DNA of 64,000 nucleotides, taken from NCBI RefSeq assembly GCF_003790525.1, contig NZ_CP033635.1; one strand, 5' to 3'. The position numbers and the translations under genes are program-made. Origin of the DNA: Escherichia coli. Lineage in GTDB: Bacteria; Pseudomonadota; Gammaproteobacteria; Enterobacterales; Enterobacteriaceae. A model generated the notes under the pieces. The model made no database searches. It saw only the letters and a list, made by a program, of their open reading frames with translations, and was not told the DNA's origin. Below, in pieces: positions 10,390 to 16,038 of the stretch; position 1 is the first letter of the stretch; every line of letters starts with the position of its first letter.

Positions 10390-11790
10390 TTAGAAGCTGG
10401 CGTTACGCGGAGTACGTGGGAACGGAATCACATCACGCACGTTTTGCACACCAGTTACGTAAGCAATCAGGCGTTCAAAACCAAGACCGAAACCTGAATG
10501 CGGAACAGTACCGTAGCGACGCAGATCGCGATACCACCAGTAATCTTCTTTATTCAGGCCCATTTCCAGCATACGCTCGTCCAGCACGTCCAGACGTTCT
10601 TCACGCTGGGAGCCACCAATGATCTCACCGATGCCCGGAGCCAGAACGTCCATAGCCGCAACGGTTTTACCGTCTTCGTTAAGGCGCATATAGAACGCTT
10701 TAATATCTTTCGGATAGTTTTTAACCACTACCGGTGCTTTAAAGTGTTCTTCCGCCAGATAACGCTCATGCTCAGAAGAGAGATCAACGCCCCAGTAAAC
10801 CGGGTTTTCAAACTTCCTGCCGCAGTTTTCGAGAATGGTCACTGCGTCGGTGTAATCCACCTGCGCAAAATCGGCTTCAATGAAGCGTTCCAGACGTGAA
10901 ACGGCATCTTTATCTACGCGTTCAGCGAAGAATTTCATGTCGTCAGCGCGTTCTTCGAGAACCGCTTTGAAGACATATTTCAGCATGGCTTCAGCCAGAC
11001 CCGCGATATCGTTCAGGTTAGCAAACGCCACTTCCGGCTCCAGCATCCAGAATTCCGCCAGGTGACGGCTGGTGTTGGAGTTTTCAGCACGGAAAGTCGG
11101 GCCGAAGGTATAAATTTTGGATAATGCGCAAGCGTAGGTTTCGCCGTTCAACTGGCCAGATACGGTCAGGAAAGACTCTTTACCAAAGAAGTCTTTGTCG
11201 AAATCCACTTTGCCCTGATCGTTACGCGGCAGGTTTTCCAGATCCAGCGTAGAAACGCGGAACATTTCGCCAGCCCCTTCGGTATCAGACGCAGTAATCA
11301 GTGGCGTTGAAACCCAGAAGAATCCCTGCTCGTTAAAGAAGCGATGCAGCGCCTGCGCCAGCGTATGGCGAACGCGCGCGACGGCACCAATCAGGTTTGT
11401 GCGCGGACGCAGGTGAGCGACTTCACGCAGATACTCAATGCTGTGGCGTTTTGCCGCCATCGGGTAAGTGTCTGGATCTTCAACCCAACCAGCAACTTCA
11501 ACCTTGCTGGCCTGAATTTCAAATTGTTGCCCCTGGCCCGGCGACGCCACGACTTTACCCGTCACAATGACCGAGCAGCCGGTGGTCAGACGCAGGACGT
11601 CTTCATTGTAGTTGGGCAGAGAATTATTGATGACAGCCTGTACAGGATCAAAGCAGGAACCGTCATAAACGGCGAGGAAGGAGATGCCAGCTTTTGAATC
11701 TCGGCGGGTACGTACCCATCCGCGCACGGTGACTTCGCTGTCAACGGCTACGCGGCCCTGGAGTACGTCGGCTACAGGCACAACGCTCAT
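10390..11790 (-). CDS. asnS: Asparagine--tRNA ligase, 466 aa
   Basis: Class II aminoacyl-tRNA synthetase; start placed at [13 protein letters not shown], 15 codons inside the ORF-track start. Confidence 0.94.
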
Positions 11791-11957: not shown

Positions 11958-13160
11958 TTAACTGGCTTTTTTAATATGCGGAAGGTCGAATGCTTTGCGC
12001 AGTGCCCGAACAAACGCTTTATCGTGGCAGATAGTTTTGCCAGGGCTGTCAGAAAGTTTCGCCACCGGTTTACCGTTACACTCAACCAACTTAATGACAA
12101 TATTCAGGGGTTTTACCTGGGGGATATCGCAGGTCAGGCGAGTCCCAATACCAAAACTTAATTGCACGCGGGAAGAGAAATGGCGGTATAGCTCAACCGC
12201 TTTGCGTAAATCCAGATTGTCAGAGAAAACCAGCGTTTTACTCTGTGGATCAATTCCCAGCTTCTCATAATGTGCAATGGCTTTTTCACCCCATTCAACC
12301 GGGTCGCCAGAGTCATGACGCAGGCCCTGATAGCGACTGGCGAACTCGACACCGAAATCACGCAGGAAAGCATCCATAGTGATGCAGTCGGTTAATGCAA
12401 TGCCAAGTTGGTCGGGATACTCTTCCAGCCAGGCAGCAAGTGCAGCTCGCTGGCTGTTGGCTAGATCCGGGCTGATTTGCTGATGCGCCTGGAACCATTC
12501 GTGTGCCTGTGTTCCCATCGGCGTGAGGGAAAGCCGGCGCGCCAGATCATAGTTGCTGGTGCCCACGAACCAGGATTCCTGTTGCAGACGCTTAACGATG
12601 GTTTCTTGTACTTCGCGAGAAAAACGGCGGCGGGTGCCAAAATCCATCAGATGGAAGCGCGACATATCAAGACCGGCGGTTAATGCCGAGAAGTCGACTA
12701 ATTTGCTTTCCAGCGTGTCGAGGGCTTGCGCAACGTCGGTCTGCGGTGAGCGATAGCGATGTACCATTTCACTGATAACCGCCAGCAAAGGAACTTCCCA
12801 GAGGATGACTTCACGCCACGGGCCGCTTAAACGAATATCCAGCTTGCCATTATCGTTGGATACGGTGACTTGTTCCGGGTTAAAGCGGAACTCGCGTAAC
12901 CAGTTAAGATAGTCGGCCTGAAAGAAAGGCAGGGCAGAGAGCCACTGATATTCATCATCCTGCAGGCGCAGGTGCTGCATCGCCTGAACCTGTTCACGAA
13001 TAGCATCGGCATAAATACCCAGCAGATCGTCACCTCGGCAACGAAACTCCGCCGCGACATGCACATCGTAATAGTGATGAAACACGGCTTGCTGCATATG
13101 CAACTTATAAGCATCTGTATCCAGCAACGAGTGCAGAACAGGAGAAGCGAATTGTGTCAT
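11958..13160 (-). CDS. pncB: Nicotinate phosphoribosyltransferase, 400 aa
   Basis: Matches PncB from [22 protein letters not shown]; start placed 16 codons inside the ORF-track start. Confidence 0.93.
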
Positions 13161-13189
13161 AGGTGCGCAGTAGCGTCCTCGTACAGGAG

Positions 13190-13207
13190 CGTTTAGTACA
13201 ATAAACA
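13190..13207 (-). promoter_or_regulatory. Candidate NadR operator in the pncB promoter
   Basis: Near-palindrome cgTTTAgtacaaTAAACa 30-50 bp upstream of the pncB ATG, resembling the TGTTTA...TAAACA NadR box; pncB is a known NadR target. Confidence 0.45.
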
Positions 13208-13425
13208 TCTTCAGGAACTGCTGGAGTATACCTTGTTTCGCAATTTATTGAACCCCGATCACACCATATGCCACCTTTCTGGTCGATGGCATTACGCGGT
13301 GTATGTTATAAAAATGTAGCAATAAAGGCGTTTGTACCTGAAAAGATGAAGATTCTGCATAGCGCGATTTACGCAACAGGAATAGACTGAACACCAGACT
13401 CTATAAAAGATGCTAAAGGTTATTT

Positions 13426-16038
13426 ATGACTCAACAGCCACAAGCCAAATACCGTCACGATTATCGTGCGCCGGATTACCAGATTACTGATATTGACTTG
13501 ACCTTTGACCTGGACGCGCAAAAGACGGTCGTTACCGCGGTCAGCCAGGCTGTCCGTCATGGTGCATCAGATGCTCCGCTTCGTCTTGATGGCGAAGATC
13601 TTAAACTGGTTTCTGTTCATATTAATGATGAGCCGTGGACCGCCTGGAAAGAAGAAGAGGGCGCACTGGTCATCAGTAATTTGCCGGAGCGTTTTACGCT
13701 TAAGATCGTTAATGAAATTAGCCCGGCGACGAATACCGCGCTGGAAGGGCTTTATCAGTCAGGCGATGCGCTTTGCACCCAGTGTGAAGCCGAAGGTTTC
13801 CGCCATATTACGTATTATCTCGACCGCCCGGACGTGCTGGCGCGTTTTACCACCAAAATTATTGCCGATAAAACCCAATATCCCTTCCTGCTTTCCAACG
13901 GTAACCGCGTTGCGCAAGGCGAACTGGAAAACGGACGTCACTGGGTACAGTGGCAGGACCCGTTCCCTAAACCGTGCTACCTGTTTGCGCTGGTGGCAGG
14001 CGACTTCGACGTGCTGCGCGACACCTTCACCACGCGTTCTGGTCGCGAAGTTGCGCTGGAGCTGTACGTCGATCGCGGCAACCTTGATCGTGCGCCGTGG
14101 GCGATGACCTCGCTGAAAAACTCCATGAAATGGGATGAAGAGCGCTTCGGCCTGGAGTATGACCTCGACATCTATATGATCGTCGCGGTGGATTTCTTCA
14201 ATATGGGCGCAATGGAGAATAAGGGTCTGAATATCTTTAACTCCAAATATGTGCTGGCCCGCACCGATACCGCCACCGACAAAGATTACCTCGATATTGA
14301 ACGCGTTATCGGCCATGAATATTTCCATAACTGGACCGGTAACCGAGTGACCTGCCGCGACTGGTTCCAGCTCAGCCTGAAAGAAGGTTTAACCGTCTTC
14401 CGCGATCAGGAGTTCAGCTCTGACCTTGGTTCTCGCGCGGTAAACCGTATCAACAACGTGCGCACCATGCGCGGATTGCAGTTTGCGGAAGACGCCAGCC
14501 CGATGGCGCACCCGATCCGCCCGGATATGGTCATTGAGATGAACAACTTCTACACCCTGACCGTTTACGAGAAGGGCGCGGAAGTCATTCGCATGATCCA
14601 CACCCTGCTGGGCGAAGAAAACTTCCAGAAAGGGATGCAGCTCTATTTCGAGCGCCATGATGGCAGCGCGGCAACCTGCGACGACTTTGTTCAGGCGATG
14701 GAAGATGCGTCGAATGTCGATCTCTCTCATTTCCGCCGTTGGTACAGCCAGTCCGGTACGCCGGTTGTGACCGTCAAAGACGACTATAATCCGGAAACCG
14801 AGCAGTACACCCTGACCATCAGCCAGCGTACGCCTGCTACGCCGGATCAGGCAGAAAAACAGCCGCTGCATATTCCGTTTGCCATCGAACTGTATGACAA
14901 CGAAGGCAAAGTGATCCCGTTGCAAAAAGGCGGTCATCCGGTGAATTCGGTGCTGAACGTCACCCAGGCGGAACAGACCTTTGTCTTTGATAATGTCTAC
15001 TTTCAGCCGGTGCCTGCGCTGCTGTGCGAATTCTCTGCGCCAGTGAAACTGGAATATAAGTGGAGCGATCAGCAACTGACCTTCCTGATGCGCCATGCGC
15101 GTAATGATTTCTCCCGCTGGGATGCGGCGCAAAGCCTGCTGGCAACCTACATCAAGCTAAACGTCGCCCGTCATCAGCAAGGGCAGCCGCTGTCTCTGCC
15201 GGTGCATGTGGCTGACGCTTTCCGCGCGGTGCTGCTCGATGAGAAGATTGATCCGGCGCTGGCGGCAGAAATCCTGACGCTGCCTTCTGTCAATGAAATG
15301 GCTGAACTGTTCGATATCATCGACCCGATTGCTATTGCCGAAGTACGCGAAGCACTCACTCGTACTCTGGCGACTGAACTGGCGGATGAGCTGCTGGCTA
15401 TTTACAACGCGAATTACCAGAGCGAGTACCGTGTTGAGCATGAAGATATTGCGAAACGCACTCTGCGTAATGCCTGCCTGCGCTTCCTTGCTTTTGGTGA
15501 AACGCATCTGGCTGACGTGCTGGTGAGCAAGCAGTTCCACGAAGCGAACAATATGACCGATGCGCTGGCGGCGCTTTCTGCGGCGGTTGCCGCACAACTG
15601 CCATGCCGTGATGCGCTGATGCAGGAATACGACGATAAGTGGCATCTGGACGGTCTGGTGATGGATAAATGGTTTATCCTGCAAGCCACCAGCCCGGCGG
15701 CGAATGTGCTGGAGACGGTGCGCGGTCTGTTGCAGCATCGCTCATTTACCATGAGCAACCCGAACCGCATTCGTTCGTTGATTGGCGCGTTTGCGGGCAG
15801 CAACCCGGCAGCGTTCCATGCCGAAGATGGCAGCGGTTATCAGTTCCTTGTGGAAATGCTTACCGACCTCAACAGCCGTAACCCGCAGGTGGCATCGCGC
15901 CTGATTGAGCCGCTGATTCGCCTGAAACGTTACGATGCCAAACGTCAGGAGAAAATGCGCGCGGCGCTGGAGCAGTTGAAAGGGCTGGAAAATCTCTCTG
16001 GCGATCTGTACGAGAAGATCACCAAAGCACTGGCTTGA
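13426..16038 (+). CDS. pepN: Aminopeptidase N (M1 zinc metallopeptidase), 870 aa
   Basis: HEYFHNW (HExxH) zinc-binding motif plus downstream glutamate; length and sequence match PepN. Confidence 0.96.
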   Translation: MTQQPQAKYRHDYRAPDYQITDIDLTFDLDAQKTVVTAVSQAVRHGASDAPLRLDGEDLKLVSVHINDEPWTAWKEEEGALVISNLPERFTLKIVNEISPATNTALEGLYQSGDALCTQCEAEGFRHITYYLDRPDVLARFTTKIIADKTQYPFLLSNGNRVAQGELENGRHWVQWQDPFPKPCYLFALVAGDFDVLRDTFTTRSGREVALELYVDRGNLDRAPWAMTSLKNSMKWDEERFGLEYDLDIYMIVAVDFFNMGAMENKGLNIFNSKYVLARTDTATDKDYLDIERVIGHEYFHNWTGNRVTCRDWFQLSLKEGLTVFRDQEFSSDLGSRAVNRINNVRTMRGLQFAEDASPMAHPIRPDMVIEMNNFYTLTVYEKGAEVIRMIHTLLGEENFQKGMQLYFERHDGSAATCDDFVQAMEDASNVDLSHFRRWYSQSGTPVVTVKDDYNPETEQYTLTISQRTPATPDQAEKQPLHIPFAIELYDNEGKVIPLQKGGHPVNSVLNVTQAEQTFVFDNVYFQPVPALLCEFSAPVKLEYKWSDQQLTFLMRHARNDFSRWDAAQSLLATYIKLNVARHQQGQPLSLPVHVADAFRAVLLDEKIDPALAAEILTLPSVNEMAELFDIIDPIAIAEVREALTRTLATELADELLAIYNANYQSEYRVEHEDIAKRTLRNACLRFLAFGETHLADVLVSKQFHEANNMTDALAALSAAVAAQLPCRDALMQEYDDKWHLDGLVMDKWFILQATSPAANVLETVRGLLQHRSFTMSNPNRIRSLIGAFAGSNPAAFHAEDGSGYQFLVEMLTDLNSRNPQVASRLIEPLIRLKRYDAKRQEKMRAALEQLKGLENLSGDLYEKITKALA

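Follow-up and report, generated by a model that had tools for sequence, protein, structure and literature searches.

Does the 18-bp inverted repeat that precedes pncB in Escherichia coli serve as an operator for NadR, and where does it stand with respect to the pncB promoter? This question was raised by a first-pass annotation of a stretch of 64,000 nucleotides of E. coli DNA (hereafter the window), which had singled out a repeat at 13190-13207 with the half-site arrangement of a NadR operator. Our reading is that this repeat is almost certainly the NadR operator of E. coli pncB, at which NAD-dependent repression would be exerted at +12..+29 of the promoter pncBp.

The window is a segment of the E. 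coli chromosome with the gene order asnS-pncB-pepN, and the genes around the repeat are placed as follows.

Ending near 11790, minus strand: asnS.
11958..13160, minus strand: pncB coding sequence, encoding nicotinate phosphoribosyltransferase (400 aa), from the open reading frame and the E. coli annotation.
Starting at 13426, plus strand: pepN.

The 801-bp stretch around the repeat was matched in 5425 of 5426 complete E. coli genomes, and it is 100% identical to IAI39, SMS-3-5 and CE10, among others, in which pncB and pepN are annotated. In the product of 11961..13160, Pfam recognises NAPRTase_N (E = 3e-38) and NAPRTase (E = 6e-94). The A of the pncB ATG is at 13160 on the minus strand, the same start as that of K-12 b0931, and the spacer between pncB and pepN measures 265 bp. 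Moreover, a run of 311 bases that begins within pncB and ends within pepN shows no difference from K-12 MG1655; given this intergenic identity, the experimental data obtained in K-12 carry over directly. Published positions were converted by subtracting 977196 from NC_000913.3 coordinates, or 976419 from NC_000913.2 coordinates, to obtain window coordinates.

A longer open reading frame, 11958..13208 (416 aa, 16 additional codons), opens at an in-frame ATG at 13208-13206 on the minus strand, which overlaps the repeat; this candidate was rejected. The spacing from the repeat to the pncB ATG is 28 nt in some species and 29 nt in others, which breaks the frame, so that the 416-aa extension is not real coding sequence. 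The K-12 pncB annotation, which begins MTQF, also speaks against the 416-aa start. The ATG at 13208-13206 is an ORF-calling artefact, which could mislead automatic annotation.

On the plus strand, 13190..13207 reads cgtttagtacaataaaca, exactly the repeat quoted by the first-pass annotation. In the orientation of pncB, it is divided into the following elements.

13190..13207, minus strand: proposed NadR operator (NAD box) of pncB, TGTTTA-TTGTAC-TAAACG, assigned from sequence, consensus and conservation.
13207-13202, minus strand: distal half-site TGTTTA.
13201-13196, minus strand: spacer TTGTAC.
13195-13190, minus strand: proximal half-site TAAACG.

The box occupies -47..-30 relative to the pncB ATG, in agreement with the distance of 30-50 bp given earlier. 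The consensus of NadR operators is an 18-bp palindrome, TGTTTA-N6-TAAACA (PMC2330246, PMC2330245), with which the pncB box agrees at 11 of the 12 specified positions. The lone mismatch is a G for A at the last base of the proximal half-site.

When both strands of the 64 kb were searched for TGTTTANNNNNNTAAACA with no more than one mismatch, the pncB box was the sole match, with 0.10 expected; at least one match of this quality occurred in 9 of 100 shuffled windows. By our own arithmetic, about 4e-4 matches are expected in the pncB-pepN spacer alone. With up to two mismatches allowed, the window yielded 5 matches against 2.2 expected, and the other four (15857, 53322, 59294 and 63704) were discarded as background frequency.

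The regulator itself is encoded outside the window, and nadR was found in 5424 of 5426 complete E. coli genomes. K-12 NadR contains an HTH_3 domain at residues 7-59, followed by CTP_transf_like and AAA_28 domains, which is the order described for the protein: an N-terminal HTH, then NMN adenylyltransferase and ribosylnicotinamide kinase domains. The HTH-bearing trifunctional NadR is restricted to Enterobacterales; the operator is bound by NAD-loaded NadR and is released by ATP-bound NadR when NAD is low (PMC12421817, PMC2330246). The gene pncB has been assigned to the NadR regulon (PMC12421817, PMC5343134, PMC9645810), and one of these studies lists it as NadR-repressed, with EMSAs there only on the nadB and nadA promoters (PMC12421817). 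In a long-term evolution experiment, nadR was mutated in every evolved clone studied, and the mRNA levels of nadA, pnuC, nadB and pncB were significantly up in all evolved lines, while those of nadCDEK were largely unchanged (PMC9645810).

The same motif is found before nadA and nadB, the other two established NadR targets in K-12. The nadA box, TGTTTAGCATATAAAACA, has one mismatch and ends 73 nt before the ATG, and the nadB box, TGTTTAGTAAATTAAACA, is a perfect match to the consensus that ends 6 nt before the ATG. A second nadB box with two mismatches lies 74 bp upstream, start to start (extract positions 1023-1040 and 1097-1114). Given that the perfect nadB box ends so close to the ATG, it must either be transcribed as part of the leader or cover the ribosome-binding region, and a downstream location of the operator is thus not unique to pncB. 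As for Salmonella, an inverted TAAACAA repeat in the pncB promoter region was reportedly proposed as a NadR site by Vinitsky et al. in 1991.

The place of the box relative to the promoter was examined against mapped transcription start sites (TSSs), as the first-pass annotation had suggested. The features of the promoter and the leader are as follows.

13218, minus strand: pncB TSS (a G), from three independent K-12 data sets.
13225..13230, minus strand: -10 hexamer TATACT, within the conserved GGTATACTCC, 7 nt upstream of the mapped TSS.
13247..13256, minus strand: -35 region GGGGTTCAAT, from the assignment of Mendoza-Vargas and as a conserved alignment block.
13161..13218, minus strand: pncB 5' UTR of 58 nt, with the operator inside it, from the mapped TSS and the ATG.

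Kim 2012 gives the pncB TSS at 989637(-) in NC_000913.2, with 180 reads, a UTR of 58 and an upstream sequence that ends ...AAGGTATACTCCAGCAG (PMC3415461 supplement). Mendoza-Vargas 2009 places it at -58, flagged 'Known' with a distance of 0, and calls for sigma70 a -35 element GGGGTTCAA and a -10 element GGTATACT separated by a spacer of 17 (PMC2760140 supplement). SMRT-Cappable-seq has the b0931 start on the reverse strand, at 990414 of NC_000913.3 (PMC6131387 supplement). As this region is the same in K-12, all three sets convert to window 13218. Among the rows listed of the Cappable-seq supplement (PMC4782308), none matches pncB or its coordinates.

The hexamer TATACT is invariant in an alignment of 59 box-bearing sequences described below, and it is also kept in Yersinia, Serratia and Proteus. 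In the -35 region, TTCAAT at 13252-13247 (minus strand) is a weak match to TTGACA. A simple sigma70 scan returned no promoter in 13100-13480, nor before K-12 nadA or nadB; the pncB promoter is missed since its -35 element agrees at fewer than four of six positions.

Counted from the mapped TSS, the box covers +12..+29 and is centred at +20.5. The operator is just inside the transcribed leader, downstream of +1 and clear of the -35 and -10 hexamers. In an open complex, RNA polymerase covers the DNA to roughly +20. Only the downstream edge of the DNA covered by the polymerase at the promoter is touched by the operator. The short distance between the repeat and the ATG had been taken earlier to imply that the 5' UTR is very short or else that the operator overlaps the promoter, and both proposals have to be corrected, the leader being 58 nt long in three TSS sets and the overlap being confined to the polymerase edge. 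Two observations had also been named together as speaking against an operator, namely a repeat well inside the transcribed leader and the absence of any effect of nadR on expression. The first is what the mapped start gives, whereas the second is at odds with the rise of pncB in nadR-mutant lines.

Some other elements of the leader were noted. The motif GGAAACGCTCCTGTGAGAGGATGC...CGCACC-ATG (13161-13194, minus strand) is kept across Enterobacterales, including Yersinia, Serratia and Proteus. The sole element resembling a Shine-Dalgarno sequence is GAGGA (13180-13176), which is conserved and unusually far (15 nt) from the ATG. This leader could form a UCCU/AGGA mini-stem, but alifold gave no supported structure.

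We assessed conservation in a sample of one genome per species, collected with a degenerate pattern for a 17-residue PncB coding motif, a procedure that is blind to upstream DNA. The scan ended at 120 loci. In 118 of these the upstream sequence sufficed for a box search, and the counting and aligning were done with the 116 in which it reached the full 300 nt. The box TGTTTA-N6-TAAACG stands 28 or 29 nt before the pncB ATG in 60 of the 116 species loci. In these 60 loci, the 18-mer is nearly always identical, including the spacer TTGTAC, which was not selected for. They belong to Escherichia, Salmonella, Citrobacter, Enterobacter, Kluyvera, Kosakonia, Leclercia, Lelliottia, Pluralibacter, Phytobacter, Pseudocitrobacter, Pseudenterobacter and Raoultella. 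As a control, 300 nt of pncB coding DNA were searched in the same way, and the best match had 3-6 mismatches in all 113 scorable loci. Among 5425 E. coli genomes, 5413 have the same sequence over the 40 nt centred on the box.

Aligning the 59 distinct sequences that carry the box revealed a conserved promoter block, TGTGATCGGGGTTCAATAAA ... GGTATACTCC, together with the box including its spacer and a leader block, GAGGA.GCTAC.GCGCACC. The stretch from +1 to +11, between the promoter and the box, is poorly conserved.

No box was found at the pncB position in the sampled loci of Atlantibacter, Siccibacter, Franconibacter, Mangrovibacter, Trabulsiella, Superficieibacter, Yersinia, Serratia and Proteus. 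These genera retain the -10 GGTATACTCC and the leader motif GGAAACGCTCCTGTGAGAGGATGC, and have unrelated sequence at the place of the distal half-site and the spacer. Judged from these sequences, the pncB box is a clade-specific addition, in one Enterobacteriaceae clade, to an older scaffold of promoter and leader. This agrees with a published account in which pncB is counted in the NadR regulon only 'in several enterobacterial genomes' (PMC5343134). An older leader motif, GGAAACG, which is present in species without the box, shares bases with the proximal half-site TAAACG. This overlap plausibly explains the invariant final G at the position where the consensus has A, and the box may have arisen in that clade through conversion of GGAAACG into the proximal half-site.

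More distant boxes were seen in two species: Dickeya oryzae has a NadR-like box with one mismatch, TGTTTAGTATAAAAAACA, that ends 202 nt before the pncB ATG, and Proteus hauseri has another with one mismatch, TGTTTAACGTGGTAAACT, that ends 141 nt before it. They may serve another promoter or a divergent neighbouring gene. The record CACSKA010000002.1, titled Chryseobacterium sp. 18061, contains a pncB of enterobacterial type with the exact E. coli-type box and spacing, so that mislabelling or contamination of this record is probable. A Citrobacter assembly in the sample apparently comes from the same project, as indicated by the accession prefix and the isolate naming.

On the other strand, Kim 2012 lists a minor TSS for pepN at 989629(+) in NC_000913.2, corresponding to window 13210, with a leader of 216 nt and 5 reads. 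Its likely -10, TACAAT (13197-13202, plus strand), is located inside the box, where it is formed on the opposite strand by the spacer and the distal half-site; the TSS is 8 nt downstream of it. The other pepN TSSs of this data set convert to window 13319, 13395 and 13426. The pepN 5' UTR and start codon (13328-13455, plus strand) resembled the Rfam family PepN_thermometer (RF02779) weakly and below threshold, at 21.3 bits (gathering score 83) and E = 0.18.

This divergent start fits a different account of the conserved 18-mer, according to which it mainly serves pepN through the TACAAT -10 and the TSS at 13210, its conservation owing nothing to NadR. We consider this account very unlikely. The 5 reads compare with 180 for pncB in the same study (Kim 2012, PMC3415461), and SMRT-Cappable-seq gives for pepN only 990591, window 13395 (PMC6131387). 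There is no credible -35, and a -10 hexamer can account neither for both palindromic half-sites nor for the agreement with the boxes before nadA and nadB.

Since the repeat is transcribed, within a leader of 58 nt, and might pair into an A/U-rich stem of 5 bp around a 6-nt loop, one may also ask whether a hairpin in the pncB 5' UTR acts on mRNA stability or translation, with NadR being irrelevant to it. Folding of 88 nt comprising the leader and the start gave a minimum free energy of -11.7 kcal/mol with z = +0.95, and 166 of 200 shuffled sequences folded at least as well; moreover, the repeat is not folded into a hairpin in the minimum free energy structure. The 55 distinct aligned leaders gave no consensus structure (alifold energy 0.0), and no compensatory changes were observed in the 18-mer, as it is essentially invariant. 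On the strand of the pncB leader, Rfam gave no match at E <= 1. By contrast, the sequence fits a consensus for DNA operators that recurs before nadA and nadB, and the RNA-level account strikes us as highly improbable. As to a functionless repeat arising by chance in A/T-rich intergenic DNA, for which there is next to no likelihood, the nine shuffled windows with a match are outweighed by a position in precisely the spacer that should hold a NadR site, by the near-identity of the 18-mer among 60 species, at a fixed distance and beside poorly conserved flanks, by its identity in nearly all E. coli genomes (the 5413 counted above) and by the raised expression of pncB in nadR-mutant lines (PMC9645810), and the conservation data effectively refute this idea.

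The identification of the repeat as a NadR operator, already put forward by the first-pass annotation, is thus supported by the match to the consensus at 11 of 12 positions, by the motif shared with nadA and nadB, by conservation at a fixed offset in 60 of 116 loci and by the rise of pncB in nadR-mutant lines. A palindrome, a position before a gene of the regulon, an HTH-bearing NadR in the same species and conservation at the orthologous position were all observed. What counts against it is the one mismatch to the consensus and the absence of the box in many Enterobacterales that have the same promoter.

Under this NadR-operator reading, when NAD is plentiful, a NadR dimer carrying NAD as co-repressor would bind the half-sites TGTTTA and TAAACG, 6 bp apart. 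The bound protein would occupy DNA that the polymerase must hold downstream of +1 or cross within the first ~30 nt, and would thereby block open-complex formation or promoter escape at the sigma70 promoter pncBp. When NAD falls, NadR would leave the DNA, and pncB, for nicotinate salvage, would be derepressed together with nadA-pnuC and nadB. The mode of this block would be steric occlusion or a roadblock, acting on polymerase binding, on opening of the complex or on escape, and the position +12..+29 is further downstream than that of most simple occlusion operators.

LacI at lac O1 provides a familiar example of a repressor that binds just downstream of +1 and blocks initiation, escape or early elongation. 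The pncB box is likewise in the initially transcribed region, with no competition for the -35 and -10 hexamers, whereas it is centred ~10 bp further downstream, at +20.5, and NadR, in which an HTH_3 domain is fused to two enzymes, belongs to a family unrelated to LacI. Closer to hand, the operators of nadA-pnuC and nadB in E. coli have motif, regulator and pathway logic in common with the pncB box and differ from it in their place: the nadA box is at -54..-37 of a weak TSS (Kim 2012, 5 reads), compared with +12..+29 for pncB, and the nadB box ends 6 nt before the ATG and is accompanied by a second, upstream box. The pncB NAD box known from E. coli and Salmonella is the same 18-bp palindrome, with 6-bp half-sites, a 6-bp spacer and the NAD salvage gene downstream. 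In the case of E. coli K-12, with the region 100% identical, it is the same site and not a relative, without any difference.

Given that TACAAT is located inside the box, NadR binding would also cover the weak divergent pepN promoter. That the operator does double duty, with NadR at the pncB box also silencing the minor pepN transcript from 13210, seems unlikely to us; if it were so, a fraction of aminopeptidase N expression would be coupled to NAD status.

The site is already known and identical to that of K-12, its role is textbook-level in the regulation of NAD metabolism in E. coli and Salmonella, and it adds nothing new to the biology. The value of examining it is practical: a real operator is recognisable from sequence alone, its geometry relative to the pncB promoter is corrected, and its restriction to one clade is documented.
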